Part shown: piece after piece, positions 541 through 44,932 of the stretch
Numbering within the stretch: the first letter of the stretch is position 1
Layout: every line of letters starts with the position of its first letter
From: Citrobacter phage phiNP
Strand: one strand, 5' to 3'
Sequence record: OR565852
Length of the DNA stretch: 44,932 nt
The notes under the pieces: model-generated
What the model was told of the DNA's origin: nothing
Databases searched by the model: none
The model's input: the letters and a program-made list of their open reading frames with translations, nothing else
Program-made: the position numbers and the translations under genes

Positions 541-581
541 CATAGAATAGCCACACTATAACTCCAATAACCCCAAAAAAC

Positions 582-610
582 TTGACCCCGCCCCTCAATT
601 GGGTTACTAT
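582..610 (+). promoter_or_regulatory. Putative hicAB promoter
   Basis: TTGACC (582-587), 17-bp spacer, TACTAT (605-610); two ATAACCCCA direct repeats flank it. Confidence 0.3.
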
Positions 611-642
611 AACCCCATCAAAACAATACAGAGAGCCGGAGG

Positions 643-822
643 ATGGATAGCAGGAATGCGATAGCAATGATTGAAGCTGACGGGTGGTATCTGGTGAGAG
701 TAAAAGGTAGTCATCACCAGTTTAAGCACCCAACCAAGAAAGGGCTGGTAACGGTGAAACATCCACAGAAAGATATACCGCTACCAACACTCAAAAGCAT
801 CAAGAAACAGGCGGGGCTCTAA
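643..822 (+). CDS. hicA: HicA toxin (mRNA interferase)
   Basis: 59-aa ORF below the track size cut-off: MDSRNAIAMIEADGWYLVRVKGSHHQFKHP...; GSHHxF motif typical of HicA/YcfA; directly upstream of hicB. Confidence 0.75.
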   Translation: MDSRNAIAMIEADGWYLVRVKGSHHQFKHPTKKGLVTVKHPQKDIPLPTLKSIKKQAGL

Positions 823-845
823 GCCCCTGCCTCCTGGAGGTTCAA

Positions 846-1256
846 ATGTTATATCCCGTTGCTATTGATAAAGGCGATTCATCCTTCGGCGTTCGCGTAC
901 CTGATATTCCAGGCTGCTTCTCTGGCGGCGACAACTATCAGGATGCGATAGAGAGCGTGCGTGAGGCTATCGACGCACATATCGAATTACTGGTGGAAGA
1001 TGGTGAAGCGGTGCCGGAAGCTACCAGCGTGGAAAACTGGCTCGCAGATCCCGATTATACAGGCGTAGTATGGGCACTGGTGGATGTAGACGTTACCCGG
1101 TTAATGGGGAAAGCAGAAAAAATCAACGTAACGCTTCCCTCTTTGCTGATCCGTCGTATCGATCAATTTGTTGCCGCTCATCCCGAATATGGTAGCCGCT
1201 CAGGCTTCCTGTCACGTGTGGCTGCTGATAAAGTGATCGGACGGGAAAAACGTTAA
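846..1256 (+). CDS. hicB: HicB antitoxin
   Basis: N-terminal HicB-type domain (MLYPVAIDKGDSSFGVRVPDIPGCFSGGD...) and C-terminal ribbon-helix-helix-like segment (KINVTLPSLLIRRIDQFV). Confidence 0.8.
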   Translation: MLYPVAIDKGDSSFGVRVPDIPGCFSGGDNYQDAIESVREAIDAHIELLVEDGEAVPEATSVENWLADPDYTGVVWALVDVDVTRLMGKAEKINVTLPSLLIRRIDQFVAAHPEYGSRSGFLSRVAADKVIGREKR

Positions 1257-1280
1257 GCCTCGTTAGAGGCTTTAGGTGAA

Positions 1281-1835
1281 ATGATGCGCAAAAAAGAATT
1301 AGCTTTTCTTAAAGAGTGTTTAAGAGTAGAAGTTATCGGAAATAAGGATAAGAAATTCTCATGGGCTCGCACCATCAGACATGCCTGGCGTCAACCTAAA
1401 CGTAGATTTCTTTTCTGGTGGCGCATTGCATCTTATCTATATGGTTCAAATAACAAACAACTAAAAAAAATAGGGAAAAGAATAAATAGAAAATTATTTT
1501 TTAAATATAACACAGACATTGAACTAGGTGTTTCAATTGCCCCCGGATTATATATTGGACATTATAGCGGGATTGTTATCACAAGATATGCGACGATAGG
1601 CAAAAACTTCAACATAAGACAAAACACCACTATTGGATTAAAAAACAATAACACTAATAAAATCACAATTGGTGATAATGTTAATGTTGGAGCAAACTCC
1701 TGCATTATATCAGAAAACATTGTAATTGGTGACAACGTAAAAATAGGAGCTTTTACATTCGTTAATAAAACGATACCCTCAAACTCTATTTATTACACAA
1801 AAAAAGAAAACATCTGTAAAGAATGGGAGGTTTAA
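1281..1835 (+). CDS. Hexapeptide-repeat (left-handed beta-helix) acetyltransferase
   Basis: Tandem hexapeptide signature (IGKNFNI..TIG..ITIGDNVNVGANSCI..IVIGDNVKIGAFTFV); strongly AT-rich relative to the flanking phage DNA. Confidence 0.7.
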   Translation: MMRKKELAFLKECLRVEVIGNKDKKFSWARTIRHAWRQPKRRFLFWWRIASYLYGSNNKQLKKIGKRINRKLFFKYNTDIELGVSIAPGLYIGHYSGIVITRYATIGKNFNIRQNTTIGLKNNNTNKITIGDNVNVGANSCIISENIVIGDNVKIGAFTFVNKTIPSNSIYYTKKENICKEWEV

Positions 1836-1850
1836 CCTCCCTTCCTTTTA

Positions 1851-2429
1851 TTACTCTACTAGCTCTGGCCATTGAATGTTGGGCACATCAGTTGGTTGCA
1901 CGCGACTGAGCAATATTCGATATTTTTTCCACTCTTTCAGGCGTATCTTCTCATCATCTGTAGCCATATCTAAATCAACAGCGTCCTGTAAGGTGGCAAT
2001 GATTTCACCAGCCTGTTGGAGCTGTTCTTTCTTCTGCGATTCAGCTTCTCTGATAAATGCCTCACGCTCTGCATCGACATCATCTATCCATGCTTCTCCA
2101 TTCCACTTCTGATAGTTCCTGTCTGGTGAAATAGTTGTCACATTTGGCGGTAATGCACCAAGGGACGAAATATAAATTGGCATACCTGTTTCAGTTTCAT
2201 ACACAGTAATCCCACGATGATCTTCAACCAAAAGCCATGTATTTTCATCAATATCAAAAATGGCCGCATATCCAGCAGGAATTTCTGGTGGCGCAATATT
2301 GGTACAATTTGCAGGTAATCCTGTATATGGTGGTATATATGTATCACTCTCACCAATAAATTCATTAGTACCATCTAGTAAGTTAAACACATTAATTGTT
2401 TGTGCTTCTGCAATCATTTTAAAAGTCAT
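1851..2429 (-). CDS. Tail fibre assembly chaperone (Tfa)
   Basis: C-terminal region typical of Tfa proteins (EAWIDDV..EAESQKK..LKEWKKYRILLSRV); immediately downstream of the tail fibre gene. Confidence 0.75.
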   Translation of the reverse strand: MTFKMIAEAQTINVFNLLDGTNEFIGESDTYIPPYTGLPANCTNIAPPEIPAGYAAIFDIDENTWLLVEDHRGITVYETETGMPIYISSLGALPPNVTTISPDRNYQKWNGEAWIDDVDAEREAFIREAESQKKEQLQQAGEIIATLQDAVDLDMATDDEKIRLKEWKKYRILLSRVQPTDVPNIQWPELVE

Positions 2430-3277
2430 TATGCAAGCCTCACGATGTAATTATATGCAATGTTTTTTACAGTATTTTCTGCATTACCAGAAGCATTTAC
2501 CGTAATGGTATGCCCATGCGAACCGATTGCGATTGTATGAGAATGAGCACCAATACCGACAGTATGGTTGTGTGCACCAATGCCTACGGTATGGGCATGG
2601 TTACCTGCTGAACTGGTCTGAACAGTATTTCGAAGACCATCAGAATCCCAATCACCTCTGGTACCTGATGGCTGTGCACCTGTCGTATAACCGTGGGTAT
2701 GTTCGCCAGTTGTGTTGGTAGTTTTAGTACCGTAATCAAATGTACTGGTCGTTTTAGTCCCATAATCAAACGAACTGGTTGTTTTCGTGCCTAAATCCGT
2801 ATTTGAGGCGCTGGCACTATGGGTATGCGACTTGATGCCATCCTGCTCCTGAGACAGAACTACTCGCCCACTGGCAGGTTTCCCCTTTATTGTCCATCCA
2901 CGCATATCAGGGATAACACCTCCAGGATACGCAATTGCCAGTTTGGGGTATTTCGCTTTATCAAACGTCTGGCCCTGCATCAGCGCATACCCGTCCGGTA
3001 CCGTATCCGACGGCCAGGGAATGGGAGAGCCAACCGGGACACCAGAAGCATCATCTGTGGCCTTTTTAATAAGGCCCTGAATGGCAGTGATAACCTGTGC
3101 ATCATTCGTCGGATCCGGCTCAATACCCGCCCCCGACAGAACAGCGATTAATTCGCGCTGCACGGTGGTAAACCACCCACCCATCAGTTCAGTGGGCTGG
3201 ACATTCCCGGCCACATTACCATCAGTAAACTCACCGTTACCGTCTGCGGTATCAGTGAGATCTCCAATTTTTTGCAT
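2429..3277 (-). CDS. Tail fibre protein
   Basis: N-terminal conserved fibre region followed by tandem DYGTKTT repeats and His-rich H-x-H-T-V-G-I-G-A repeats; position between baseplate genes and tfa. Confidence 0.7.
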
Positions 3278-3330: not shown

Positions 3331-3936
3331 TCAGGAGGCAGCGGGGATATAGTTAATTCGCAGAATCAGGCCAGGATCGACCAGGCGCTGCAGCATACAT
3401 TCCAGCGTTTTGTTACCCCATGACCTGAGTGGGTCACCACATCGTGCCTGCCCGCACTTTGCCCGAAATATGGTGGTTTCAGGGACGTTGACCTGCAGCA
3501 CAAACGGCCAGTCGTCACCATTCAGGGCATCGCCGCACGCAGAAAGCCCGCAGCGCGCCCGGCGATATTCAGTCACAGTAATGGTATAACCCGCCGCGGC
3601 CAGCGTCTGGATCAGCCCGTCAATACTCAGATTGCCACTGCTGGTTAGCCTGGCCACTACCGCCTCACGGCGCCGGGAAATGGTGATCATCTCGGAGATA
3701 GAGCAGTTATCCGGTAGCCCCAGCGTTTCTTCCCATTCCGTCAGCAGGGTGCCCGCCGTCGCGGGAAAGGCGTTTCGCAGCAGGGAAACCGCCGCCGTAT
3801 CGTTGGCCGCGAACGATCTGGCTATTGCCCTGAGTACGCGTCCCATCACCGTCTGGCGGTCATGTTGCCAGGCCTTTCCGGGTGGCAGTAGTTTTCCCAG
3901 CGCTGCGGCATAGTCATCTGTGCTGTACCGGCTCAT
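3331..3936 (-). CDS. Baseplate/tail protein (Mu gp48-like, YmfQ/DUF2313-like)
   Basis: Size and position after the J-like baseplate gene; family recalled from memory. Confidence 0.55.
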   Translation of the reverse strand: MSRYSTDDYAAALGKLLPPGKAWQHDRQTVMGRVLRAIARSFAANDTAAVSLLRNAFPATAGTLLTEWEETLGLPDNCSISEMITISRRREAVVARLTSSGNLSIDGLIQTLAAAGYTITVTEYRRARCGLSACGDALNGDDWPFVLQVNVPETTIFRAKCGQARCGDPLRSWGNKTLECMLQRLVDPGLILRINYIPAAS

Positions 3937-5090
3937 GTCGTGGTACCCGAAAATGTGATATCACCGCGGACGGGGAGTTCACCCGCGCCCAGCTGGATAA
4001 AGGTTCCGGAGGGGCTGTTAATCACAAAGCCCCGGGTTCCATCGATCGCACCGATGGCCAGCGTTAAATCGGACATAAAAATTTTTCCGCCAGGCTCGCC
4101 ATTGTCAAAGAAGACCTCATCAATAGCGCTTTCAATCGCTGCAACCGTGGCCGCGTCAGCATCCGGAATGCCGCCAATATCAAAATTAATCACCTTTTTA
4201 ATCGGAGAACAGACCCAGATAACAGTAGTGGCCGGGCGGCGTGGAAAAATGTAATCAGCGACCCGCAACTGGTCACCAGTAGCCTTGCCATACGGGTATT
4301 GTTCCTTTGTCGCTACCCCGTCAGTACCAACAGGAAACCCGTTGTTTGAACGATCGGCGCCATCACACATGATATAGACACCAACACTGTTAGCCCCCAT
4401 CAGTCGCGGCGCCACCCAGGCACGGGTAATGCCTGCCACCTCCAGCGCCCAACGTCTGTAATCGTCCGCGTTCCCGCCCTGTGATTCGCTCTGATACGCC
4501 AGCAATCCTCGCTGTCGGAAAGCTTCCCCATCTTCAATATCGGCCCCGCCGGTGGCGGCCTCCAGCAGTATCAGCGCGCTTTCAACGCCCGCAATGTTGG
4601 TATCCAGCGTCAGACGGGTGCCGCTGTCAGCATTTCCTGCCGATCCGCCTCCGCTCACATCCTCCGTAATATCAGAGAGCACCGCTGTGACCGGCACCGT
4701 ACCGGTACCATCAGTACCGATTTTCAGCCCGGCATCGGTGGTGTACTGGTATCCGTCAGAACGATTCAGGATGGAGCCCGCCGGAATAATCGCCCCGGGG
4801 GTACCGGTTGCCTGACAGGCTGGCGAACGGGCTGCGCTGGCCGCCTTGCGGAATACCTTCTTCAACGCCATCCACTGCGCCAGATACTCCCCCGTTGCGG
4901 TAAAGGGAATGGACTGCTTCGCGATGTAGTCCAGATAGGCATAATGCAGATGGGACATTCCGGCATCCATATCCGCCAGAACACGCAGGTTCGAAAATCG
5001 CAACAACGCACCGACGCTTTTCAGCTCGGTTTGCAGGAACTGCCGGTTTCGCTGACGCAGTTCACTCAGGGTGTCTCGTTTAAACGGCAT
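3933..5090 (-). CDS. Baseplate J-like protein (Mu gp47-like)
   Basis: 385 aa, position in the Mu-like baseplate series, overlapping start/stop with neighbours. Confidence 0.7.
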   Translation of the reverse strand: MPFKRDTLSELRQRNRQFLQTELKSVGALLRFSNLRVLADMDAGMSHLHYAYLDYIAKQSIPFTATGEYLAQWMALKKVFRKAASAARSPACQATGTPGAIIPAGSILNRSDGYQYTTDAGLKIGTDGTGTVPVTAVLSDITEDVSGGGSAGNADSGTRLTLDTNIAGVESALILLEAATGGADIEDGEAFRQRGLLAYQSESQGGNADDYRRWALEVAGITRAWVAPRLMGANSVGVYIMCDGADRSNNGFPVGTDGVATKEQYPYGKATGDQLRVADYIFPRRPATTVIWVCSPIKKVINFDIGGIPDADAATVAAIESAIDEVFFDNGEPGGKIFMSDLTLAIGAIDGTRGFVINSPSGTFIQLGAGELPVRGDITFSGTTT

Positions 5091-5532
5091 TCTTTAACTG
5101 CTCCCATACCCAGTAAAATTTGATTTCCTGCTGGCCGTCACCGTCCGGCGAACTCAGGCGAACAATCAGGTTAAGGCGCGCCGGCCATATGATTTGCGCC
5201 TCCACCTGAATATCCCCCACCACACCATCAGATTTCAGCCAGGCCAGTGCCTCCAGCGCGTATTCCTCCGCCCTGACAGCAACACGGGTCGTTAATTTTT
5301 CGCGGCGCAGCAGCCACAGGCGGGAGCCCATCGCCTGAGCCTCTCCGGAATCTCCCCACCATCCCCGGCGGTCAGTGCCTTCATAGTCATCGTCGGCACG
5401 CGCCAGGCGGTCAGTGAACAGGCTGATAATCACCGCTGTCTGGAGGTCATTACCCGACGCCAGTGCGCCAGCGGTGATCCCCCAGTCAGCGTGCATGGCG
5501 TCAGCGTCCCAGAATGATGAAACGTCACTCAT
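5080..5532 (-). CDS. Baseplate protein (Mu gp46 / gp25-like)
   Basis: 150 aa; synteny in the Mu-like baseplate operon. Confidence 0.55.
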   Translation of the reverse strand: MSDVSSFWDADAMHADWGITAGALASGNDLQTAVIISLFTDRLARADDDYEGTDRRGWWGDSGEAQAMGSRLWLLRREKLTTRVAVRAEEYALEALAWLKSDGVVGDIQVEAQIIWPARLNLIVRLSSPDGDGQQEIKFYWVWEQLKNAV

Positions 5533-6113
5533 GTCACCTGCCCCGCGGTTTTCTCACTGGTAATACTGCTGCTGCCACCAGCGACGCCTTTCGTCACATG
5601 GTTGTGACCGTTATATGCGTCGCGTAACTCTTTCAGCGTGCGCGGGTTGCTCTCGCAGTTATCGACAACATCCCCGGTAACCAGCAGCTTCGGCGTGATC
5701 AGCTTTACCTGCTCTGTCGCTGTGACCGTCAGGTTTCTGGCGTTATTCACCGTCACATCCTGTCCGTTCGCCTCAACAGTGATCCCTTTCTCCGTCATCA
5801 GGATATAAAGCCCCCACTGGTTATAAAGGACCGTTTCTCCCGGGTTCAGCCCGGTATGTCGGTGCCCCTGATGGTTGGAGCCAATGATCACCGGGCTGGA
5901 GCGATCGCCCCCCAGGAAAGCCAGTACCACATCAGAGCCCGCAGGCAGCGCGGAAGAAAAGCCAAACTCCGTTATCCGGCGGGCCGTAGCCACCTCCAGC
6001 GGTGTCTGGTACTGCACGCTCTGAACTGTGCCGCCGTCGTTCTGACCCGTCACACGACCAATACCCAACATCCCGGCGACGCGGGTCGCCAGGTGTCTGA
6101 AAAGTTGATTCAT
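5529..6113 (-). CDS. Baseplate assembly protein V / spike (Mu gp45-like)
   Basis: 194 aa; synteny; translationally coupled to neighbours. Confidence 0.6.
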   Translation of the reverse strand: MNQLFRHLATRVAGMLGIGRVTGQNDGGTVQSVQYQTPLEVATARRITEFGFSSALPAGSDVVLAFLGGDRSSPVIIGSNHQGHRHTGLNPGETVLYNQWGLYILMTEKGITVEANGQDVTVNNARNLTVTATEQVKLITPKLLVTGDVVDNCESNPRTLKELRDAYNGHNHVTKGVAGGSSSITSEKTAGQVT

Positions 6114-7189
6114 GGATTAAGCCCCGGTATCTGTTGGTAGAAAGCGTAAGGCTGGACGGTAAACGCCTCCGGTGGCATCAGGGACAGCCTGGCGTGCGTT
6201 CCGCCTGAATCCCTGATAAACGTCACCTCGGACAGCAACATTTCCCGATCGGTGACTTTCAGCGCCGGAATATTGACCGGGATCAGCGTATTGGGCTCCC
6301 ACAATTTCCCGGACTTATCCCGCCAGCTGTCAATCGTCACATCCAGTTGCCGGGAACGGCCGTAACGCCGGTTCATCTCCCAGTCGATACACTGCTGCGC
6401 CTGCTGTGACGCCATCAGCGTGCTCTCAACAATCACAATGCGTTTCCGGTAGCGCATTCTGGCCGCCTCCGGATCGCGTGCGGTCGCCAGGGTCACCGAA
6501 TCGTAGGCAGTATCCGGCGCCAGCCCGCTAACCGGGGACAGGCTCATGGATACCCCGACATAATCAGAAAACCGCTCAGCCATTGAGGTTCGGAAATATG
6601 CCTGCTCGATGTTTTCCCCCTGGGCGACACCACTGGCCGCCTTCCGGGTTCCCACCCTGGTCAGCAGCAGATTGCCGTCAGGCTGGTCGTAATACAGCAG
6701 CGCAGACCAGCGGCTGACACGTTCGATGATCTCCTGCGGGGATTCACCCCAGTTGAGTGTGAACTGGGGAACAGCAACCAGATCACTGACATCTGACGAT
6801 ACGGATATGCCGTAATACGAGGCCAGACGTGAAGCGATATCCAGCGCGTTGCCACCGTTAATCACGTTATTCGGCCACTCGGCGGAGCAGTCCACCAGGT
6901 CCTGGCACTTTCCGCGCCCCGTTGCTCTGACTTCATGGCGACTCCGGCTTATCGACGGCTCCCAGTCATCGACATAGCCGGTGATCACCAGGTCGTTACC
7001 GATCCGGATTTCGCAGGACTCCCCCTCCCTGACCAGCTGTTCATCCTGGCTACCGGGGAAATAGTCCATCAGCCCTAGGTCAAAATCAGACGGGAAACGC
7101 TCGATTGCCCGGGTGACCCGCACGGAATCCCAGCCCTCTATTCTTCTGCCTCCCACGGTGAGGGAAACGAGATCGCGGGTTTCAGTCAT
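6110..7189 (-). CDS. Baseplate hub / tail protein (Mu gp44-like)
   Basis: 359 aa; synteny between the DNA circulation and spike genes. Confidence 0.55.
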   Translation of the reverse strand: MTETRDLVSLTVGGRRIEGWDSVRVTRAIERFPSDFDLGLMDYFPGSQDEQLVREGESCEIRIGNDLVITGYVDDWEPSISRSRHEVRATGRGKCQDLVDCSAEWPNNVINGGNALDIASRLASYYGISVSSDVSDLVAVPQFTLNWGESPQEIIERVSRWSALLYYDQPDGNLLLTRVGTRKAASGVAQGENIEQAYFRTSMAERFSDYVGVSMSLSPVSGLAPDTAYDSVTLATARDPEAARMRYRKRIVIVESTLMASQQAQQCIDWEMNRRYGRSRQLDVTIDSWRDKSGKLWEPNTLIPVNIPALKVTDREMLLSEVTFIRDSGGTHARLSLMPPEAFTVQPYAFYQQIPGLNP

Positions 7190-8589
7190 TGCCGTAACAC
7201 CTTCATTTTCACAGGCATAAATGCCGGGTGGGGAACATCCGCTTCCTGCACCAGTTCATCAGCGCGCCCGGCATCCTGATACAACCGGTTTGCCAGCGTC
7301 AGCGCCGGAAGTGGCCGCGCGGTGCTGATCTCCATCAGCTCGCTCAGGTTCGGAGAAATATCGCTCATCCTGTCGATAAATGAGGATCGAAGACTGAGCA
7401 GCGCCCTGTAGAGATCATCATCGCCGCGGTCGCCCACCACCACCAGCGCTACATCCAGCTGATCGGATACCCGCTGCGTCAGTCCTTCGGCTTCGTCACG
7501 GCTGGTCGGATTGGACTCCGCCGCCGCCGCAGTCATCGCCCCGGAGCACAGCACAATGATCAGGGTGTTGACAGAGGCCGCGATTTTTCGCGTGGCCTCT
7601 GACTGCTGGTATTCGGTACTGGTGGCACCGGCCAGAGACTCCAGCAGCGTAACGCGCTCATCAATACCGCCGACGCTGTTCAGTATCAGGTTCACCAGAT
7701 CCGCCGTCAGCTGCATGATATCTTCGGGCGCCGTGGCGCTGTTGAGCCGTTCGACAGCATCTGAAATATTCTGGCGATCCATGACCGCCTGAGCCGTTAC
7801 CTGTTCGACCAGCGCCTGATAATCATCAGTGTCATCGGCCTGGTGAGTACCCGTTGCCCCGGAAGAACTCCCACCTGCCGTCCCTTTGTTGTAGCGTCCA
7901 TAGCGGGTATTCCCGAACGTGGAATTCAGGACGTTACTGACACTGGTCGCTTCGCTGATCGTGCTGTCTACCATCCGGGTCCAGAAGGCGACCGTTCCCC
8001 TGATGGTGTTGATCCCCTGAGTCACCCCCCGGAGTTCACTTTTGATCCGCGCCAGAACGCTGGAAACGGTGGTGGTAACCAGTTTCAGATAATTTGTCAC
8101 GACGTTCACACCGGCGACCTTGCTGCCGGTAATGGCGAACACCTTCAGACCTGATTCAATGGCTGTCAGGGTAAATTCGAACACCCGCCCGGCCTCCGCC
8201 GTTCCGGCAATTCTCAGGCCACCATCCGGAATGGCAACCGTCATTTCCCCCAGCGTCGGGTGTACCAGTGTCCCCGGCCCCTTTTCCTCACAGGCATTAA
8301 TCAGCGCCTGGCGCTGGGTAACGGCATCACCGCCACCGTAAACCTGGCTGTCCTCGACCAGAAAGCCCCTGATGGTTATCCGGCGAACACCCCGCCCCAG
8401 ATCTTCAATCCAGGCGGTATCCCGGTACGGGTATTCATGGACAGCCTGGCGACGTCCATGGACCCCTTCTTCAATCACGACGGCAAAAGGAACGCCCCGG
8501 AAGCTGGACGGCCGTAGCTTATCCTGCCAGCGCTCACCGCCTGTGCCGCCCATCAGAGCGGATATTGCATTCTGGATAATTGCCATCAT
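7186..8589 (-). CDS. DNA circulation protein (Mu gp43-like)
   Basis: 467 aa; position immediately downstream of the tape measure gene. Confidence 0.6.
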   Translation of the reverse strand: MMAIIQNAISALMGGTGGERWQDKLRPSSFRGVPFAVVIEEGVHGRRQAVHEYPYRDTAWIEDLGRGVRRITIRGFLVEDSQVYGGGDAVTQRQALINACEEKGPGTLVHPTLGEMTVAIPDGGLRIAGTAEAGRVFEFTLTAIESGLKVFAITGSKVAGVNVVTNYLKLVTTTVSSVLARIKSELRGVTQGINTIRGTVAFWTRMVDSTISEATSVSNVLNSTFGNTRYGRYNKGTAGGSSSGATGTHQADDTDDYQALVEQVTAQAVMDRQNISDAVERLNSATAPEDIMQLTADLVNLILNSVGGIDERVTLLESLAGATSTEYQQSEATRKIAASVNTLIIVLCSGAMTAAAAESNPTSRDEAEGLTQRVSDQLDVALVVVGDRGDDDLYRALLSLRSSFIDRMSDISPNLSELMEISTARPLPALTLANRLYQDAGRADELVQEADVPHPAFMPVKMKVLRQ

Positions 8590-8622
8590 TACCCCATAAG
8601 TAAAAACCCGCCGGCTGGCGGG

Positions 8623-10536
8623 TCAGTAGAACATAGGCATGGAGATCCGGCCGCCATTACGGGTTTCAATGGTCTGCTTCTCGCCATTACTGCCGGTCAT
8701 GGTAATTTCCAGCCTGAGTTTCTGATCCTCAAACGCCGCTTTCATCGCGCTGGTCAGATTTTCCCGTTCAGATGCGCTGGTACCACTACGCGGCTGGATA
8801 ATGGAGGGCGTCGCCCTGCTGGTGTTACCGGCGGCAACAGGTGCAGGTGACGCTGGCGACTGGCTGGCTATCACCCCGGGAGCATCCACCGCCGGTTTTT
8901 CTGCCTCCCTCACCACCGGCGGTAGCACCGGTGCCGGAACCCGGGCAGGATTCTGGTTAGCCCCTTGCGCGATATTCCGGTAATGCGCCAGTACGGCGCC
9001 AGGATACGCCGCGTTTTCCCGCCCCCACCGGCTCCGATCATAACCGCCGTTGTAATACCGCAGCGCCAGCGCCACATTTCCCCGGGAGCGTTGCATGTTC
9101 TCCGCGAAAATCTGCGCCCCGGCCATGATGTTTTGCCGGGGATCGGTCCAGTCAGTGACGCCGGTATTGCGGAAGTTTGACGGCATGACCTGCATCAGCC
9201 CCCGGGCGCCCGCCCGACTGATAGCACGCGGATTACCGCCGGACTCCTGGGACATTATCGCCTTAAGGAGTGTCGGATCGACGTTATATTTATCACCGGC
9301 TTCATGGAGAAGGTCGTCATATCGCCCCGCCCGTTCATAGGTTGTTGAGCGGCGGGATACAGGACGCCTCTCTGCTGGCCTGCGTGGCGCAATACCCGTC
9401 AGATCCTCCTGCAGCTGTGCCGCCGCGTCAGTTGCACCATAGCGGGCATCGTAGCGCCTGCGCACGGCGTCAGTATAAAATCCGGCATCCACCGCCCCGC
9501 GCTCCATCCGGGACAGGCTGCCGTACAGGTCTTTATCTCCCTGAATACGTCGCAACTTTTTGGCATTATCGCTGCTGACAAAACCGAGCGCATGAGAGAG
9601 GCCAGTAAAATCGCCGTGAGAGAACAGATCCGTTATGCCCTCCAGTCCATCTTTTACCGAACCGTCGATTTTATTCAGGCTGCCCAGTAACATACCGGCG
9701 GACATTTTCTTTTTCAGACCGTCCCATGATGCGCTGACTTCATTCAGGGTGCCGTTCATATCCTTCAGCTGGTCATTCAGAGCCGGATCCATCGTCAGAC
9801 CAAACTGATCGGACTTCGCCAGCAACTCTTTCAGGCGGGCACCTTCGCGCAGCAGCTGCAGACCGTTAGCATCCAGCCCCAGCGCATCAGCGGCGGTCTT
9901 CTGGTTCTCCGGTGACAGAGAGGGAAATACCCGGGCGATAGATTCCAGGGTTTTCAACACATCCGCCGTACCGTCCTTGTTCCTGACAATCTGTGCGCCA
10001 ATCTGGGACATCGCCCCCAGGACCGCGCTGTTTTTTCCCCAGAGCGCATCATTGAAGGTTTTAAACATCCCTTCTACAGACGCGTTCGCGCTCTGACTGT
10101 CGCTACCGAGGATGCGCATAGCGCCTGAAAGGCGGGTAAACTCGTCCACCCGCATTCCGGCGTTTTTGGCTGACACATCGAGGTTATAAGCCTCCCGCGA
10201 CGCCTCCGCGAAACTCTCTGCGACCCGCTTCATGCCATACCCGACCGCACCGGCCAGGCCAACTGAAGCCAGCTTTCCGGACAGCTCCCCCACCATTTTC
10301 AGGGGAGGAACCATATCACCGACAAACTGGACGTTATCGCGGGCCGCCCGGGCCATGCTGTCCAGTCGTCCGGAAATATTATCCAGCCCGTCAGTAGTAT
10401 CCTGGCCACCCAGCGCAAGCTCATCCTGGGTGTTCTGCAGTAGCGGGAGAAGCTTACGCACGGCCCCATCTATCCGGGAGACAGCATCACTGACCTGATC
10501 ATCTGCCACCAGTTCAAAATCAAATGCATTACTCAT
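8623..10536 (-). CDS. Tail tape measure protein with C-terminal lytic transglycosylase (SLT) domain
   Basis: 637 aa; Ala/Gly-rich helical N-terminal part; SLT-like segment LLKAIMSQESGGNPRAISRAGARGLMQVMP. Confidence 0.7.
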   Translation of the reverse strand: MSNAFDFELVADDQVSDAVSRIDGAVRKLLPLLQNTQDELALGGQDTTDGLDNISGRLDSMARAARDNVQFVGDMVPPLKMVGELSGKLASVGLAGAVGYGMKRVAESFAEASREAYNLDVSAKNAGMRVDEFTRLSGAMRILGSDSQSANASVEGMFKTFNDALWGKNSAVLGAMSQIGAQIVRNKDGTADVLKTLESIARVFPSLSPENQKTAADALGLDANGLQLLREGARLKELLAKSDQFGLTMDPALNDQLKDMNGTLNEVSASWDGLKKKMSAGMLLGSLNKIDGSVKDGLEGITDLFSHGDFTGLSHALGFVSSDNAKKLRRIQGDKDLYGSLSRMERGAVDAGFYTDAVRRRYDARYGATDAAAQLQEDLTGIAPRRPAERRPVSRRSTTYERAGRYDDLLHEAGDKYNVDPTLLKAIMSQESGGNPRAISRAGARGLMQVMPSNFRNTGVTDWTDPRQNIMAGAQIFAENMQRSRGNVALALRYYNGGYDRSRWGRENAAYPGAVLAHYRNIAQGANQNPARVPAPVLPPVVREAEKPAVDAPGVIASQSPASPAPVAAGNTSRATPSIIQPRSGTSASERENLTSAMKAAFEDQKLRLEITMTGSNGEKQTIETRNGGRISMPMFY

Positions 10537-10720
10537 CGTCGCCCCTCGCCCTGATCCCGTTGATGCGGTCAGCCTGCGCCACCCACCATTTCAGGCGCTG
10601 CCAGGTCATGTTCCATGCTGTATCAGACGGCCACCTGAAATAAAAGGTGACGTCAGCCGCCGTCACCTGCCATTGTGTCAGGGCTTCCAGGTCAAAAAAC
10701 CGAGTAAATATTCCTCGCAT
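10529..10720 (-). CDS. Tail assembly chaperone, -1 frame extension (putative frameshift product)
   Basis: Overlaps the upstream chaperone ORF by 43 nt in the -1 frame across a T6 run (10694-10699 on the plus strand). Confidence 0.45.
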   Translation of the reverse strand: MRGIFTRFFDLEALTQWQVTAADVTFYFRWPSDTAWNMTWQRLKWWVAQADRINGIRARGDDE

Positions 10721-10956
10721 TTGCGGAAGTCCAGAAAGTCCATCGGTGCCAGAACACTCTCACGAACACCGGACACCAGCGCAATCAGTAGCCGCATGGC
10801 CGCCAGCGAGGTCGATGCCGTCTGCTTTTCATAGAATTGTTCAGCCTGGCTTAACGTCGGTGCCTTCAGCTCCAGAGAGTCATAGCGCGTTTTCTGCGCC
10901 TGGTCTTCCAGGGGGACCGTCAGCGTCACCACTTTGATTCTGTCCAGCTCTGCCAT
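10678..10956 (-). CDS. Tail assembly chaperone (upstream frame)
   Basis: 92-aa ORF between the tube and tape measure genes, ending ...EEYLLGFLTWKP. Confidence 0.5.
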   Translation of the reverse strand: MAELDRIKVVTLTVPLEDQAQKTRYDSLELKAPTLSQAEQFYEKQTASTSLAAMRLLIALVSGVRESVLAPMDFLDFRKCEEYLLGFLTWKP

Positions 10957-10958
10957 TA

Positions 10959-11330
10959 TCAGTTCTCCGTTACGTCGCGTCCTTCCCAGCGCACATCAAA
11001 AACAGCGTCCTCGCTTTCCACTTCCTGGACATTCACCGTCCAGAGGCTACGACCTATGATGGTTTTGCCGTTAGCCAGCTCCGCGATGACGTTCACATTA
11101 GTCTGGTCGTTAAAGCCCGCCACGACCGTACCGCCGCTGTCGCGCAGACGCGCGGAGATATAGGACGCCACCGGCTTTTCCTTGTAGCCGTGGACGCCAT
11201 CCATCCCCACAAGAGAGGTGCGGTTAACCTTCGCAGCCTGGTATTTAAACGAGCCTTCCACCATCACCGTCACCCCGTTCACGGTGACGTAGGCGGTACC
11301 CGCCAGGCGGTTTGTGGTATCTCCTGTCAT
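10959..11330 (-). CDS. Tail tube protein
   Basis: 123 aa immediately downstream of the sheath gene. Confidence 0.65.
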   Translation of the reverse strand: MTGDTTNRLAGTAYVTVNGVTVMVEGSFKYQAAKVNRTSLVGMDGVHGYKEKPVASYISARLRDSGGTVVAGFNDQTNVNVIAELANGKTIIGRSLWTVNVQEVESEDAVFDVRWEGRDVTEN

Positions 11331-11333
11331 TGT

Positions 11334-12836
11334 TTAAGCTCCTGTAGTTGACTGCGCCTGGAGGCGGAACTGTGTCAGCAGTGCAAAGATGCGCAGCTGG
11401 TTCATCAGCGTTCCGGGCCAGAGGACATCGACCCGGTTGGGGTTCAATGCGTTCTGCTCGACGATCAGGTTTTTCGCGAATGATGCCGAATCCTGCACAT
11501 AGCCGTTATATTCCAGGGTCTGGTATTCCGCGATCTGGTCTGCCCTGATGACGTTCGGGGTCACGATGGCGGCTCCCGGCGCAAACCGGGTCCCGTCCGC
11601 CGCCAGTTTCATCCGGCCAAATTTGCTGGTTACCTGCGTGCGCAGATAGCGAACCACAAACATCAGGTTAAACAGCGTTTCCACCTGCAGATAGCTGTCA
11701 TCCGCATCGCCGTAAGCGTTGGTCTGGTAGGTGGTGATCACGTTCTCCACGCTAACGGTGCCATCATCCGCTACGGTAAAGGTGGAAATACCGCTGTGCA
11801 GCAGGTTGTTGCGTTCGGTCAGCGTAAACCGATCCTCCAGCGCTGGCGCCAGCACACCATACACCGGCAGGGTCTGAGTGGGACGACCGGGGTCGTTACG
11901 CAGCGACGGCGCTATGGCCCCGGTCAGTGCCGCCGCCCAGACATAAGACGGAGACGGTGACCGGTTCACGCCCATCAGCGTCTCATGCTGGTTATTGCGG
12001 GTTTCTCCCTTTGTCCCCAGCTCCGCGTAGGTGCCACTGGTCACACCAAATGCATGACCATAGAGCTGCTGCTCCCAGGACCAGCGCCCGGTGGCATCCG
12101 ACAGAAACGCCTTTATGGCGTCCAGCGATGCCGTGTCATCCCAGGGGTTTACGATGAAATCAAAGGTCTTGTCCTGCAGGTTTGCCAGCCCACCAACCAT
12201 ATCAGGTGCACCGGCGCCGCCGGTCATGGGCGAAATGGTGATATCCAGGCCGACAGGTGTTGCCTCTCCACCCTGTGAGCCCAGATAGTTCAGGCGCAGA
12301 TCCACCGAGTTACCGCAACTTCCGGGGTTACGGGCCGTCAGCTCTACGGCACCGGCATTCGCAGACGCCGCTACCGGAATCCCCGCCTTTTTATTAATCG
12401 CCGCGGCCAGCGCGGTGGCAATCTGACTACTGGTATCATCGGAGGTTACGGATACCTGTACCCGGGTACCGCCAATATAAAGCGAGATCACACCAGCCCC
12501 TGACGCCGTTCCGCTGATGGCAATGCTACCCGTCGCGCTGACCATGCTGGAGTCAGCGGCCAGCGGCAGGATCCAGATCTCCGCAGCGGTATCGTTCTGC
12601 TGGTAAGCCGTCATCATCGCATGCAGCATCGAGCCCCTGCCGGTCAGCTCCCCGACCACATTCACGGACGAAACGCGAACAGGAATATCCGGCGCCGTGG
12701 TGCCGGTATCCAGCATCTGGCCAATCAGCAGCGTGCGCTGGGTTGCCGTGGCGCTGTTCGCCATAGAGTTATCAAACTCCACAAAAAACAGCGGGGTTCG
12801 AAGATTAGACGGAATTCGGGAAAACGGGACGGTCAT
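11334..12836 (-). CDS. Contractile tail sheath protein
   Basis: 500 aa; size and position typical of Mu L-type sheath proteins. Confidence 0.75.
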   Translation of the reverse strand: MTVPFSRIPSNLRTPLFFVEFDNSMANSATATQRTLLIGQMLDTGTTAPDIPVRVSSVNVVGELTGRGSMLHAMMTAYQQNDTAAEIWILPLAADSSMVSATGSIAISGTASGAGVISLYIGGTRVQVSVTSDDTSSQIATALAAAINKKAGIPVAASANAGAVELTARNPGSCGNSVDLRLNYLGSQGGEATPVGLDITISPMTGGAGAPDMVGGLANLQDKTFDFIVNPWDDTASLDAIKAFLSDATGRWSWEQQLYGHAFGVTSGTYAELGTKGETRNNQHETLMGVNRSPSPSYVWAAALTGAIAPSLRNDPGRPTQTLPVYGVLAPALEDRFTLTERNNLLHSGISTFTVADDGTVSVENVITTYQTNAYGDADDSYLQVETLFNLMFVVRYLRTQVTSKFGRMKLAADGTRFAPGAAIVTPNVIRADQIAEYQTLEYNGYVQDSASFAKNLIVEQNALNPNRVDVLWPGTLMNQLRIFALLTQFRLQAQSTTGA

Positions 12837-12997
12837 TTACTGGCCCCCTTATTTTTGGTTTCAACCAGTGCCACATCGCCATCGCGCAAACGGCGGCGCC
12901 AGAAAGTATTATCCGGCACCTCGGCGCCGGATTTGGGCAAAGCTTCGCCCCGGACCGGGCAGCGAACGCTGAGCCCGTCCTTCGGTTTTACGAACAT
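12833..12997 (-). CDS. Small tail-associated protein (Mu gp38 / DUF2635-like)
   Basis: 54-aa ORF MFVKPKDGLSVRCPVRGEALPKSG... found by manual translation; its TGA overlaps the sheath ATG (ATGA coupling). Confidence 0.35.
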   Translation of the reverse strand: MFVKPKDGLSVRCPVRGEALPKSGAEVPDNTFWRRRLRDGDVALVETKNKGASK

Positions 12998-12999
12998 AA

Positions 13000-13545
13000 T
13001 TACTCCTGCAGATCGATACTGACGCCGGGGCGCGGAGTGCCGTCCGGCATTTCAATAGTGATGTCCACGCCCTCCAGGGGGTGGGTTTCGATAGGATAGA
13101 AGTCCTCCGGCCCCTGGTAGTGCTCGATGTCGATTTCCACCAGCAACTGCCCCAGATGTGCCTCACCGTCGGCATCTACGTTGATTGTCGATCGCACTTC
13201 GGCATACTGCTGAATCCGGCGGGTCAGCTCATAGCTGTTGATAACAGCCCGCTCGACCTGATCGCGCAGCGTCTCCAGCGCGATTTCGGCCCGCATGGCG
13301 CCATCATCCTCTGATTCGCCGTCATATTCCTGCACCCGCCCCGTGATCCGGATGGTGGTCACGGTGGTGAATGCCGGCGCATTACGGCCCTGAGAACGCT
13401 TGTGGTCAAAGGGGGTCTGAACCAGTATTGCCGGATAGATATCGGCCCGGGTGGGCCAGTCCCGGGGAGAATAGACGCGCTCCCCGGCGTCCGTCTTCCC
13501 GGCCAGGCTGGCAACAACCAGCTGCCTGATAGTGGATGCATTCAT
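13000..13545 (-). CDS. Virion morphogenesis protein (Mu gp37-like)
   Basis: 181 aa; synteny. Confidence 0.45.
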   Translation of the reverse strand: MNASTIRQLVVASLAGKTDAGERVYSPRDWPTRADIYPAILVQTPFDHKRSQGRNAPAFTTVTTIRITGRVQEYDGESEDDGAMRAEIALETLRDQVERAVINSYELTRRIQQYAEVRSTINVDADGEAHLGQLLVEIDIEHYQGPEDFYPIETHPLEGVDITIEMPDGTPRPGVSIDLQE

Positions 13546-13892
13546 GATCGGGACCTGACGACGTTGAGCACCAGCTTTGTGCCGCCGTGGCTGTCGGGCT
13601 GTTTATCCATAACAACAAACAGCTGATTAACCGGAACACCGCCGACAGTGCGAATAAAAACACGATCTCCCTGCTCCGGAGGTCGGGTAAAATCCGAATC
13701 CCTGACGCCCAGCACCGGACTGGTGGTGTTGATCTCAGCATCGCCATCGAGGTTCTCAGCCAGCTGCACATAGCCCCGATCAAAGATGCCATTCACGTCA
13801 AACGGCGTACCGCCGCGCGGGCGGTACTCATGCCGGTCACCAAAAACCTGATGCAACGGTGCCAGCAGATGGGTATCCCAGTTAACCCCCAT
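13542..13892 (-). CDS. Head-tail connector-like protein (Mu gp36-like)
   Basis: 116 aa; synteny. Confidence 0.45.
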   Translation of the reverse strand: MGVNWDTHLLAPLHQVFGDRHEYRPRGGTPFDVNGIFDRGYVQLAENLDGDAEINTTSPVLGVRDSDFTRPPEQGDRVFIRTVGGVPVNQLFVVMDKQPDSHGGTKLVLNVVRSRS

Positions 13893-13894
13893 AA

Positions 13895-14200
13895 TCAGCC
13901 CTCCGTAATACTGACGCCGGACGCCTTCGCCAGCGCCTTTTTACGGACCGCCTGCAGGTCCGCAATGACACCCGCCTGAATCAGACGTTCAGCATCCGCA
14001 CCGGTGACGGGAATACGCCTATTTTCACCGTATTCCCGCCCGTTATGACGGACACAGTTCCCCTTCAGCACCACATAGTCAGGATCCGATGTTTCGTCCT
14101 GCGACTCTTCGGCGTCCAGAATTTCTTCATCTTCCGGCCCGTCATACCCTGTTTCTTCTGCCTGAAGCAGGGCTTCATTTTCCGGTTTCTTTTTACCCAT
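13895..14200 (-). CDS. Acidic head-completion/connector protein (hypothetical)
   Basis: 101 aa, D/E-rich N-terminus; lies between the major capsid gene and the tail module. Confidence 0.35.
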   Translation of the reverse strand: MGKKKPENEALLQAEETGYDGPEDEEILDAEESQDETSDPDYVVLKGNCVRHNGREYGENRRIPVTGADAERLIQAGVIADLQAVRKKALAKASGVSITEG

Positions 14201-14201
14201 A

Positions 14202-15251
14202 TCACACCACCGTTGCGCAAAGTGAAGCGTTGACCCGGCTCGGAATCACCAGCGGCGCGGACTGCATCAGCAGAAGGCGCTGAGCGGGATCTTCTTTGAC
14301 CCAGGTTTTCGGCGCGTACGCTAATGGCCCGTAGTTGAAGGCAGGATCCATGATGACGCCAAATGCCCGGGTTCCCATCAAATCGGCACAACTCATCAGA
14401 ACAGCGCCGTCCGGGATGAGGGGTTTTTCCTTGTTATCTTCCGGGTCAATAAACCAGTCGTTATAAAGCCACAGGTCAAAGTTGCCCCAGCGCCCTTTAT
14501 AGACGGCCCCCTTCATGATCTGCGCCCCGGCATTGACCTGGTTACCAAACGGACTCAGTGCCGGGAAGGTGATCGCGTTGTCCTTGATGGTGGTATCCAG
14601 ACGGAACGCACGCCAGGATTTGTTGGTGAAAATCAGATCGGTTGCCACCGCGCCGGACTTCTGCAGGACACGGGTCTGCCAGTCCTCGATATCATCTGAC
14701 GGTCGCGTGTTCGTGGCACCGGCTGCCACAGTGAGCGGCCAGACGTCCGAGCCACTCAGGGTGACGGTCAGAGAGGGATCGCGCCCGAAATTCACCACAC
14801 GGGTTTCGTATCCGTCGCCGGAGACTGTGACGGTGCCGGTAGTCAGTGCGCTGGCGGCCATCCACTCCAGACGGCGGTTAATCATGTCAATCTGATCGGC
14901 CATCTCGAACTGCAGGTTCAGCATTTCGCGCTCAGCCGCGGTATATTCTCCGCCAATGCGTTCACCAATCTGACGACGGATAGGTTTACGCAGATCCGGC
15001 GCGCGCTTATCTTTGATATACGCAGGTTTAAAGGTATTGGTCTGGTAGGTTCGGGACTCCACCAGCTTGCCTTCCACCAGCGGAGACACAAACGGCGACA
15101 TACGGCGAAGACCCACGTCCACGTCAATCGCCACCTCTTCCTGGTCAGATGTCACCACATTTGGAAAGAAGCGGTCCAGCAGCCAGTTCTGGCTGGTTTT
15201 CAGGTTCGGCACCACCTGCACCAGCACACTGGTATCAAAAATATTCTTCAT
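14202..15251 (-). CDS. Major capsid protein, lambda gpE family
   Basis: 349 aa with stretches resembling lambda E (SPFVSPLVEGK vs ALYVSPIVSGE; MQSAPLVIPS vs MIQSAPLMLL). Confidence 0.75.
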   Translation of the reverse strand: MKNIFDTSVLVQVVPNLKTSQNWLLDRFFPNVVTSDQEEVAIDVDVGLRRMSPFVSPLVEGKLVESRTYQTNTFKPAYIKDKRAPDLRKPIRRQIGERIGGEYTAAEREMLNLQFEMADQIDMINRRLEWMAASALTTGTVTVSGDGYETRVVNFGRDPSLTVTLSGSDVWPLTVAAGATNTRPSDDIEDWQTRVLQKSGAVATDLIFTNKSWRAFRLDTTIKDNAITFPALSPFGNQVNAGAQIMKGAVYKGRWGNFDLWLYNDWFIDPEDNKEKPLIPDGAVLMSCADLMGTRAFGVIMDPAFNYGPLAYAPKTWVKEDPAQRLLLMQSAPLVIPSRVNASLCATVV

Positions 15252-15344
15252 ATCAGGTCTCTTTGCTATGCCGGCTCACTGGCCGGCCAAATTCAGAACA
15301 GAAGCACCCCTGCCGGTTAAGGCATACGTTCAGTGCTTCGGGGA

Positions 15345-15752
15345 TCAGGAAGAGGAAAGCGGCGTTTGTACACTGTCGCGCAGAAAGATGGCTACCGGGC
15401 GTAGCGCGGTTTTCATCTCCGCCATGGTCCAGCTTTTATCGATAGTGACACGATTCTGGTTAAATTCACCCATCAGATAAACACCGGCCTGCTGCTCTGC
15501 GTCGGTGGCATCAACATCATCCACCAGAATGGCCAGCGGCGTCTGGCTACCGTCAGCAGCCGTTTTAACGCAGGCGGTATAGTTACCGGAGTCGGTGATC
15601 ATACCCAGTACGGTACCGCGTGTTAGCACGTTACCGGCATCAATCATCACCGTATCGGTGACCAGCTGCAGAGTACCGGCAATCAGCTGATCGGGGACAA
15701 ACAGAGAACTCTGCATTCCCGGAGAAAACGGGTTTGGCCCAAACTGATCCAT
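15345..15752 (-). CDS. Head decoration protein (lambda gpD-like)
   Basis: 135 aa immediately upstream of the capsid gene. Confidence 0.5.
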   Translation of the reverse strand: MDQFGPNPFSPGMQSSLFVPDQLIAGTLQLVTDTVMIDAGNVLTRGTVLGMITDSGNYTACVKTAADGSQTPLAILVDDVDATDAEQQAGVYLMGEFNQNRVTIDKSWTMAEMKTALRPVAIFLRDSVQTPLSSS

Positions 15753-16354
15753 TATTTTTCACCTCGCGCATTGTTATAGAGCTGCGTCATTTTGCTGACG
15801 AGCTCCGATTTACCATTTGACGCCTTCCCCCCATCCGCGCCCAGACGGACCTGCTGCCCGGACATCATGCGCTCATCCAGAGAGCGACGCCCGCCAGCAG
15901 CCCCGGCACCACGCTGTGCTGCTGCGGACGATTTCATGACGCTGATAGCGGCGGCCGAACTCATCCCGGTATTGAATGCCAGCGATGCAGCCAGCGCCGG
16001 ATTAGCAGCAGCATGGTGGCTGCCAAAGATACGGGCGCAGCGGCGGCGTTCAGCCGTTCGGGCCTTACGTGTCGCTTTTCCTTCCTTTTCATCATCGCCG
16101 TCATCCTCTTCCGCATCCGGCTCCTGCTCATCATCACCTTCCGCATCCGGATCGGTCTCATCGTCTTCGGCGTCGTCCTCACGGTCGTCATCTTCGGCGT
16201 CACCATCACGATCATCGTCTTCCGCATCGTCCTCGCGCTCGTCTTCTTCAGCGCGGCGGCTGCGGGCCTTCTTCGCTTTTTTATCCTCTTCATCCTCAGA
16301 TGCAGAGGCGCCTAAACCCAACAGATGGGCGAAACTGAATGATGCTTTTGCCAT
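15752..16354 (-). CDS. Scaffold-like highly acidic protein
   Basis: 200 aa with a long (E/D)DDAEDDD(R/E)D repeat block; start overlaps the stop of the S49 protease gene, the position Nu3 holds in lambda. Confidence 0.45.
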   Translation of the reverse strand: MAKASFSFAHLLGLGASASEDEEDKKAKKARSRRAEEDEREDDAEDDDRDGDAEDDDREDDAEDDETDPDAEGDDEQEPDAEEDDGDDEKEGKATRKARTAERRRCARIFGSHHAAANPALAASLAFNTGMSSAAAISVMKSSAAAQRGAGAAGGRRSLDERMMSGQQVRLGADGGKASNGKSELVSKMTQLYNNARGEK

Positions 16355-16355
16355 A

Positions 16356-19128: not shown

Positions 19129-19136
19129 GATGGTCC

Positions 19137-44896: not shown

Positions 44897-44932
44897 TTTC
44901 GGACGCTGGTTCAACTCCCGCCAGCTCCACCA
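44897..44932 (+). repeat. attR; partial copy of the ssrA 3' end
   Basis: 36 nt TTTCGGACGCTGGTTCAACTCCCGCCAGCTCCACCA; final 25 nt are identical to 1-25; one mismatch to the remembered ssrA sequence; upstream flank is phage coding DNA. Confidence 0.7.

Follow-up and report, generated by a model that had tools for sequence, protein, structure and literature searches.

NeuO, the polysialic acid O-acetyltransferase encoded by prophage CUS-3 of Escherichia coli K1, is a soluble hexapeptide-repeat enzyme that depends on acetyl-coenzyme A (acetyl-CoA), has a catalytic histidine and is carried as lysogenic-conversion cargo; it is phase-variable via a 5′ heptanucleotide variable number tandem repeat (VNTR) (PMC3046976). 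Here we analyse a gene of ΦNP, a prophage of Citrobacter rodentium, whose product resembles NeuO in several of these respects. The gene, ΦNP ORF4, lies at positions 1281–1835 on the + strand of a 44,932-nucleotide stretch of DNA (Citrobacter phage phiNP, OR565852; hereafter the window, meaning the whole stretch that was analysed) and encodes a hexapeptide-repeat protein of 184 residues, referred to below as the acetyltransferase. Table 2 of PMC6456863 lists ORF4 as 'Serine acetyltransferase - Fitness', without experiment. Our sequence and model comparisons suggest a different assignment, namely an acetyl-CoA-dependent O-acetyltransferase with the fold of the serine acetyltransferases (SATs) from which the specificity for serine appears to have been lost. 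To the proposal that this enzyme O-acetylates an envelope glycan we give about an even chance; the core of the lipopolysaccharide (LPS) is our best guess for the acceptor and would take roughly half of that likelihood.

A serine acetyltransferase fold with a changed active site

In a preliminary description of this DNA, made from the letters of the sequence, ORF4 had been called a left-handed beta-helix hexapeptide acetyltransferase, and both domain matches and modelling bear this out. The Pfam families Hexapep (PF00132, 30.9 bits) and Hexapep_2 (PF14602, 28.8 bits) are each matched above the gathering score of 27, and the [LIV]-[GAED]-X2-[STAV]-X motif of hexapeptide repeats occurs seven times between residues 80 and 160. 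An AlphaFold2 (AF2) model built from an 80-sequence alignment (predicted local distance difference test score, pLDDT, 96.3; predicted template modelling score, pTM, 0.89) has a four-helix N-terminal domain (residues ~4–76) followed by a left-handed beta-helix (residues ~78–170). It replaced an earlier AF2 model from 27 sequences that had a pLDDT of 74.7, a poor beta-helix and weak Foldseek matches. When the final model was compared with the PDB by Foldseek, the best 50 matches were all serine acetyltransferases, down to an E-value of 1.8e-10 and with query-normalised TM-scores of ~0.6–0.74; serine acetyltransferases also lead the phmmer search of PDB sequences (best E 5e-9). A fold search against the viral models of BFVD returned low TM-scores only and was uninformative, and among phage protein families the acetyltransferase matches PHROG 2154 (E 2.4e-71). 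The protein is strongly basic, with an isoelectric point of 10.15. In windows of 19 residues its Kyte-Doolittle hydropathy reaches at most 1.33, so that no membrane helix is predicted and the enzyme should be soluble; it is presumably a trimer. A membrane enzyme of the Oac type was considered and ruled out, there being no match to Acyl_transf_3 and no predicted membrane helix.

In CysE, serine and cysteine are bound by Asp92, Asp157, Arg192 and His193, as is established in the structural literature on this enzyme; we verified the residue numbering against the E. coli CysE sequence. The catalytic His158 of CysE corresponds to H94 of the acetyltransferase, which is invariant in both sets of homologues (27 and 80 sequences), and Asp143 corresponds to D79, a position that holds D or E in 26 of the 27. 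The residues that contact the substrate, by contrast, are gone. G93 takes the place of Asp157, at a position that is A or G in 19 of the 27 homologues, while N126 and K127 stand where CysE has Arg192 and His193, two positions that are variable among homologues, and in the alignment the acetyltransferase lacks the region around Asp92 altogether. Also missing is the C-terminal tail with which CysE binds CysK and which ends in Ile: the acetyltransferase finishes with ...KEWEV just past the beta-helix, and nothing in it corresponds to the last ~30 residues of CysE. Scores against curated models of the CysE type are low (62.1 vs. a cut-off of 210.65 for TIGR01172, and 37.6 vs. 397 for NF008349). 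The best curated match is to the EpsC model NF041874, at 78.1 vs. a cut-off of 150, and two WcaB models are likewise matched under their cut-offs (49 vs. 196 and 48 vs. 194.65). Because the catalytic His/Asp pair is kept and the residues that bind L-serine are lost, the database label 'serine acetyltransferase' is wrong.

Glycan and LPS core genes beside relatives

Of the 1.84 billion cluster representatives (50% identity) that were searched, only 27 are relatives at E ≤ 1e-30, a number that rises to 433 when E ≤ 1e-10 is allowed; the close subfamily is small. The more distant chromosomal homologues (30–45% identity) are found mostly amid glycosyltransferase genes: their 139 neighbour proteins include 16 glycosyltransferases of family GT2 and 15 of GT1/GT4. 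Only seven of the 139 are PALP (CysK-type) proteins, so the distant relatives do include some true SATs. C. rodentium itself has a chromosomal paralogue with 61% identity (P0031), found on many contigs (locus L003, 4730–6570, in CP082833.1), that lies directly 3′ of a GT2 glycosyltransferase gene. The two genes form an islet of low G+C (GC) content (~0.36–0.44 vs. 0.57–0.60 in the flanks) that immediately follows tRNA-Pro(GGG) and is bounded by yejM and narP.

A more specific association, with genes for the LPS core, recurs among the relatives. A homologue with 64% identity (L015, 7177–8560) lies directly 3′ of a gene for WaaZ, the transferase for the third residue of 3-deoxy-D-manno-oct-2-ulosonic acid (Kdo III), which scores 222.9 vs. 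a curated cut-off of 200. WaaZ-like genes (80 bits, under the cut-off) stand directly 3′ of the homologues in the viral loci L102, L113 and L114 (7968–9508) and one small ORF beyond the homologue in the viral locus L111 (7968–9511). In a Pseudomonas locus (L024, 7096–8552) the WaaZ-like gene is directly 5′ of the homologue, so both gene orders are seen; the adjacency is found in three separate lineages of relatives. HtrL_YibB genes adjoin homologues in two viral loci (L138, 3074–4610, and L141, 912–2445), and in E. coli htrL is a neighbour of the waa cluster. At one locus (L143) the adjoining gene is weakly GT9/RfaQ-like. WaaZ adds a third Kdo, and the LPS shifts to glycoforms with a truncated outer core (PMC6358824). 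For ΦNP, the receptor on E. coli K-12 is GlcII of the LPS outer core (PMC6456863).

In the window, the acetyltransferase gene occupies a phage cargo slot outside any polysaccharide cluster. From the LPS-core receptor of ΦNP, taken together with the LPS-gene associations of a minority of its relatives, we infer that the acceptor could be the LPS core or another envelope glycan that is put together at the cytoplasmic face. The literature yielded nothing usable on O-acetyl groups in the C. rodentium O-polysaccharide.

Composition, selection and alleles

The protein is that of C. rodentium WP_012906752.1 / CBG89320.1, and an identical copy is encoded on at least 266 public contigs; NCBI also lists a form of 183 residues that starts at the second Met (nt 1284). 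Compared with orthologues of 81–83% identity, the ratio of non-synonymous to synonymous substitution rates (dN/dS) is 0.05–0.08, so the acetyltransferase is under strong purifying selection and has been kept functional. Judged by this low ratio and by the at least 266 contigs with an identical protein, the ORF is not a product of chance.

The preliminary description had also regarded the gene as compositionally foreign, and the figures agree: its GC content is 32.1%, vs. 58.1% for the tail and head genes (3331–21000) and 53.2% for the whole window. Low GC is not confined to the acetyltransferase: the patch takes in the tail-fibre assembly gene tfa (40.1%) as well as the fibre gene towards its 3′ end (48.9% for that gene as a whole). 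We found no DNA-level relative of the acetyltransferase gene in complete E. coli genomes and no close DNA relative of the region among the INPHARED phages. The closest orthologue outside Citrobacter, at 83% identity, is that of Escherichia albertii (CP070287.2; L006, 4934–6543), which belongs to a 90%-identity cluster of 108 member sequences. No tail-fibre gene adjoins this orthologue, which lies in a prophage remnant next to ompT and a gene for an NleG type III effector.

Codons 61–64 of the acetyltransferase contain a homopolymer of eight adenines (A8; 1463–1470, + strand). Two independent public run assemblies (ERR930280 and ERR969266; L257, 195–386, and L258, 1039–1230) carry an otherwise identical allele with seven (A7), in which a TAG stop follows K63 and the product is cut to 63 residues (P0090). 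Slipped-strand on/off switching could account for this allele, and so could a homopolymer error. In the closest orthologues the tract is A7–A8, but a run of A8 or longer appears in 19% of shuffles, making it statistically ordinary. Between window positions 1100 and 2000 we found no tandem repeat or VNTR, which leaves the A8 run as the sole candidate slippage site; phase variation of the acetyltransferase is speculative.

A cargo slot next to the tail-fibre assembly gene

ORF4 does lie, as had been noted at the outset, between a toxin–antitoxin (TA) module and a tail-fibre assembly gene: hicAB is 5′ of it, and the convergent Caudo_TAP gene tfa is 3′. This setting recurs. Relatives are encoded on 174 stretches of IMG/VR, of which we examined 79 loci. 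A convergent tfa is the next gene downstream in 37 of 78 viral loci, and of the 65 distinct proteins encoded immediately downstream, 32 are Caudo_TAP. The upstream neighbours in viral loci include HicB (9), P2 gpU (6) and tail sheath (4) proteins; the gene thus fills a slot distal to tfa in both ΦNP-like and P2-like phages. In 67 of the 78 viral loci it is lower in GC than its flanks. Among deposited phage genomes, this setting recurs in Hafnia phage yong2, in vB_EcoM-613R2 and in the P1-like JL22.

In Escherichia phage JL22 (ON018986.2; L170, 722–8089), a P1-like phage-plasmid, the homologue lies between alternative tail-fibre/tfa sets, with one of the two alternative tfa genes on either side and cin close by. 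Should the homologue be located within the invertible segment, inversion would bring it into a codirectional position behind the alternative S′-U′ fibre genes and would couple its transcription to the choice of fibre.

The slot has mosaic boundaries. The ssrA-dinI-hicAB part of the window is common to two other ssrA-integrated prophages (L096 and L100) at ~84% DNA identity, up to nt 1281 exactly (window 558–1281 vs. 4628–5349 in L096 and 3707–4429 in L100). Past this point, both have an acetyltransferase that is merely 52% identical and an unrelated Tfa. By this comparison nt 1281, in the start codon, is a sharp recombination junction that forms the 5′ edge of a module of cargo and host-range genes. 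In blastn, a block made up of the acetyltransferase, tfa and the C-terminal part of the fibre (1304–3019) aligns with L126 as one continuous stretch of 76% identity, and L126 has an unrelated phage backbone with a fibre of 1196 residues and different flanking genes. On this evidence L126 is a clear case of en-bloc transfer of an acetyltransferase together with its host-range module, a type of movement that appears to be occasional.

Acetyltransferases that are ~52% identical to that of the window are paired with Tfa proteins of 11–21% identity, and those that are ~40% identical with Tfa proteins of ~55% identity. Acetyltransferase and Tfa identities do correlate in a raw Mantel test (0.51, reached by 0 of 2000 permutations), but the correlation is driven by near-identical loci. 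Viewed from the other gene, the acetyltransferase comes next in only 2 of the 57 viral loci that have a related Tfa (57–77% identity) and enough downstream sequence. The slot may instead contain methyltransferases, invertases, Mn catalase, PagK, NleG or a GT1/GT4 glycosyltransferase, and in some loci it is empty, with sheath or gpU genes directly next. Strict co-inheritance with Tfa is ruled out by the reassortment of alleles and the count of 2 in 57, and for the same reasons the adjacency to tfa is mainly an effect of the cargo slot. Papers on P2/P4 defence hotspots do not mention acetyltransferases.

Prophage ends, flanking genes and transcription

The window is the complete ΦNP prophage of C. 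rodentium, from att to att. The published attP/attB 25-mer of ΦNP, TGGTGGAGCTGGCGGGAGTTGAACC (taken from PMC6456863), is the 25-bp 3′ end of ssrA and is found exactly at both window ends (1–25 and 44908–44932), with 0 matches expected by chance; it is these two exact copies of the core that identify the window as the whole prophage. Positions 1–66 are matched by E. coli ssrA.

The left-end cargo block starts with a dinI-like gene (241–540, + strand; PF06183 DinI, E 4e-20), which is ORF1 in PMC6456863 and for which public gene calls put the start at nt 295 (81 residues). It is followed on the same strand by genes for the HicA toxin (643–822; PF07927, E 5e-22) and the HicB antitoxin (846–1256; PF15919, E 3e-45). 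A consensus scan located a sigma-70-like promoter candidate, TTGACC-17-TACTAT (582–610, + strand; 9 of 12 matches), upstream of hicA. As a consensus match only, it is the sole + strand promoter-like site ahead of the acetyltransferase, and such sites are fewer in the region than in shuffled controls. Directly 3′ of the hicB stop, the + strand has a hairpin without a U-tract (1255–1272; −13.4 kcal/mol and z −2.45 for the fold of 1245–1295), and after it comes a Shine-Dalgarno sequence, AGGTGA (1274–1279, + strand), ahead of the acetyltransferase. At the other end of the gene, the GC-rich hairpin GGGAGGTTTAACCTCCC (1825–1841) overlaps the stop codon and is matched by a terminator scan on both strands. 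RNA folds of 1815–1860 have −13.5 kcal/mol (z −2.67) on the + strand and −16.7 kcal/mol (z −3.72) on the − strand, and the hairpin looks like a bidirectional terminator between the convergent acetyltransferase and tfa genes.

On the − strand, tfa (1851–2429; PF02413 Caudo_TAP, E 1.6e-35; PHROG 105, E 1e-82) encodes the tail-fibre assembly protein, a chaperone, and the tail fibre gene (2429–3277; PF07484 Collar; PHROG 295, E 3e-118) has its C-terminal, receptor-binding half in the low-GC patch. Mu-type baseplate genes come next after the fibre gene. The acetyltransferase gene has hicAB upstream and is encoded opposite to the late operon, a layout that fits a moron expressed in the lysogen and co-transcribed with hicAB.

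The prophage end near the second att copy has genes for an integrase (40889–42055), a 595-residue ABC-type ATPase (42059–43846) and an adenine DNA methyltransferase (43926–44807). The best solved relatives of the ATPase are PtuA of Septu/retron systems, an OLD-family nuclease and AriA (E 1e-7 to 1e-2), with matches that are limited to the Walker-type stretches; the protein may be anti-phage defence cargo. None of the defence families in PADLOC-DB matched the acetyltransferase, DinI, HicA or HicB, and a known defence system was rejected for the acetyltransferase on these grounds.

Discussion

Our preferred reading is that the acetyltransferase was acquired horizontally as cargo (a 'moron') at an att-proximal end of the prophage and acts on an envelope glycan of the lysogen. 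The gene would be transcribed in the lysogen, from the strand opposite to the late genes and probably by read-through from the hicAB promoter, and its transcript would end at the bidirectional terminator that it appears to have in common with tfa. No membrane segment is predicted for the enzyme, unlike for those of the Oac type, and its targets would have to be cytoplasmic intermediates: a sugar of the glycan would be O-acetylated while assembly is under way at the cytoplasmic side of the inner membrane. This lysogenic conversion would alter the lysogen's surface, with possible effects on phage adsorption and antigenicity. Besides the LPS core, the acceptor may be an O-unit linked to undecaprenyl pyrophosphate (Und-PP), enterobacterial common antigen (ECA) or colanic acid. 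For the preliminary description this means that its account of fold, composition and position stands, and that its functional idea, O-acetylation of a surface polysaccharide with lysogenic conversion or exclusion as the outcome, is consistent with our data. ORF4 is best filed as a misannotated glycan-type acetyltransferase in prophage cargo, a kind of gene that is already known.

Several observations weigh against this reading. K-12 lysogens of ΦNP are still infected and lysogenised by ΦSM, which uses GlcIII of the core (PMC6456863), so that gross masking of the K-12 outer core is unlikely. The associations with WaaZ, HtrL and glycosyltransferase genes concern a minority of loci, and none of them is found in ΦNP itself. 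The proximity of tfa is not specific to the acetyltransferase, the site being a general cargo hotspot. PHROG 2154 is labelled as a phage family of 'unknown function', and the authors of the JL22 genome state that it is not known why the gene is there. With regard to expression, the hairpin behind hicB could limit read-through into the acetyltransferase, and a gene with 32% GC in an enterobacterium may be silenced by H-NS.

The envelope reading can be taken further, to a portable host-range cassette in which the acetyltransferase masks the receptor that the fibre tip, assembled with Tfa, binds. A phage that recognises GlcII would then O-acetylate the LPS core of its own lysogens via a cytoplasmic enzyme, and released progeny as well as rivals that use the same receptor would fail to adsorb; in related phages, WaaZ-like or HtrL-like genes that remodel the core would be partners of the enzyme, and slippage at the A8 run could switch it off at low frequency. 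We consider this elaboration unlikely. If true, it would amount to a second, cytoplasmic beta-helix route to LPS conversion by phages, aimed at the core and not at the O-antigen.

Turning to other explanations, the acetyltransferase could modify a small molecule other than an envelope glycan, for example a xenobiotic or antibiotic compound, a nucleotide or a signalling metabolite, and serve detoxification, defence or counter-defence from within a variability hotspot. Hexapeptide acyltransferases do include xenobiotic acetyltransferases, the hypervariable slot elsewhere holds methyltransferases, effectors of the type III secretion system (T3SS) and other fitness genes, and ORF4 itself adjoins a TA module, with a PtuA/OLD-like ATPase at the other prophage end. 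We regard such a role as rather unlikely, given that PADLOC produced no match, that the curated families closest to it belong to the CysE/EpsC/WcaB type and are not Vat/CatB-type xenobiotic acetyltransferases, and that the recurrent neighbours are glycosyltransferase, WaaZ-like and HtrL-like genes.

The gene might also be silent, hitch-hiking cargo in C. rodentium, either xenogeneically silenced or drifting to loss, that may act in other hosts. This would agree with its very low GC content and with the two public assemblies in which the frameshifted A7 allele truncates the protein at 63 residues, and is made quite improbable by a dN/dS of ~0.08 relative to orthologues, by the intact protein on at least 266 contigs vs. 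two with the frameshift, and by the intact catalytic residues.

A genuine serine O-acetyltransferase, that is, an auxiliary metabolic gene that raises O-acetylserine, and with it cysteine synthesis or signalling via CysB, whether in the lysogen or in the course of infection, would explain why the best matches among curated models, PDB sequences and folds are without exception serine acetyltransferases, why the catalytic His/Asp pair is conserved and why PALP proteins occur next to distant homologues (7 of 139). We rejected this candidate, which is highly improbable in view of the active-site and tail residues and the curated cut-offs: D92, D157, R192 and H193 are absent or replaced across the subfamily, the CysK-binding tail is missing, and the scores are far under the equivalog thresholds (e.g. 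62 vs. 210.65 for TIGR01172). In addition, no cysK is nearby, and the close relatives are found in phage cargo slots or beside glycosyltransferase genes. Equally hard to credit is a role in the virion, with the enzyme acetylating the fibre, its chaperone or a host component in lytic growth as part of the host-range module, for which the convergent tfa in 37 of 78 viral loci, the 76% identical block of acetyltransferase, tfa and fibre tip on the different backbone of L126 and the position between alternative tfa genes beside cin in JL22 would speak, whereas transcription runs against the late operon, the alleles of acetyltransferase and Tfa reassort, a related Tfa is accompanied by the gene at this site in only 2 of 57 loci, and protein acetylation is not known from left-handed beta-helix enzymes of this type.

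What makes the envelope-glycan proposal worth pursuing is the biology of the phage. As an active temperate phage, ΦNP belongs to the standard mouse model for infection by enteropathogenic and enterohaemorrhagic E. coli (EPEC/EHEC); it can form lysogens of E. coli K-12 as well, so that testing the hypothesis would be inexpensive. If true, the hypothesis would correct the label 'serine acetyltransferase' that has spread through the genomes of P2-like, P1-like and other phages, and it would provide a function for PHROG 2154. It would also add a class of soluble, cytoplasmic enzymes to phage LPS conversion, which is otherwise dominated by membrane enzymes of the Oac and Gtr types, and would bear on phage host range, serotyping and recognition by the host immune system. 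If false, ORF4 is one more cargo gene in a known hotspot of variability.

Comparison with known systems

The best functional analogue of the acetyltransferase is NeuO. Like NeuO, it is prophage-borne, soluble and built as a left-handed beta-helix with a catalytic His, the activity being predicted in the case of ΦNP. It differs in belonging to another sequence subfamily, with a score of 39.8 vs. 160.8 against the NeuD/NeuO model TIGR03570, and in having the SAT-type N-terminal helical domain that NeuO lacks. Nor does its gene contain a tandem repeat comparable to that of NeuO, the A8 run being all there is, and the substrate of NeuO is the K1 capsule.

With CysE (EC 2.3.1.30), the acetyltransferase has in common the fold, the order of the domains and the equivalents of His158 and Asp143. 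Unlike in CysE, the N-terminal domain is cut down to four helices, and both the serine-binding residues and the CysK tail are gone. WcaB and EpsC are, like the acetyltransferase, short SAT-like hexapeptide enzymes (~160–190 residues); in contrast to them, it scores below both equivalog cut-offs and is encoded in a phage cargo slot and not in a polysaccharide cluster. The role that we propose, O-acetylation of LPS by a prophage enzyme such that a receptor or antigen is changed, is the one known from Sf6 Oac and enzymes of the OafA/GtrC type. The Oac/OafA enzymes, however, are integral-membrane Acyl_transf_3 proteins that work at the periplasmic face, and the acetyltransferase has no Pfam match to Acyl_transf_3. 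The phage proteins annotated as 'serine acetyltransferase' in JL22 (sacF), ESSI2 P2-like phages, yong2 and vB_EcoM-613R2 belong to the same family at 39–50% identity, and their genes are usually positioned convergent with tfa, as in ΦNP.

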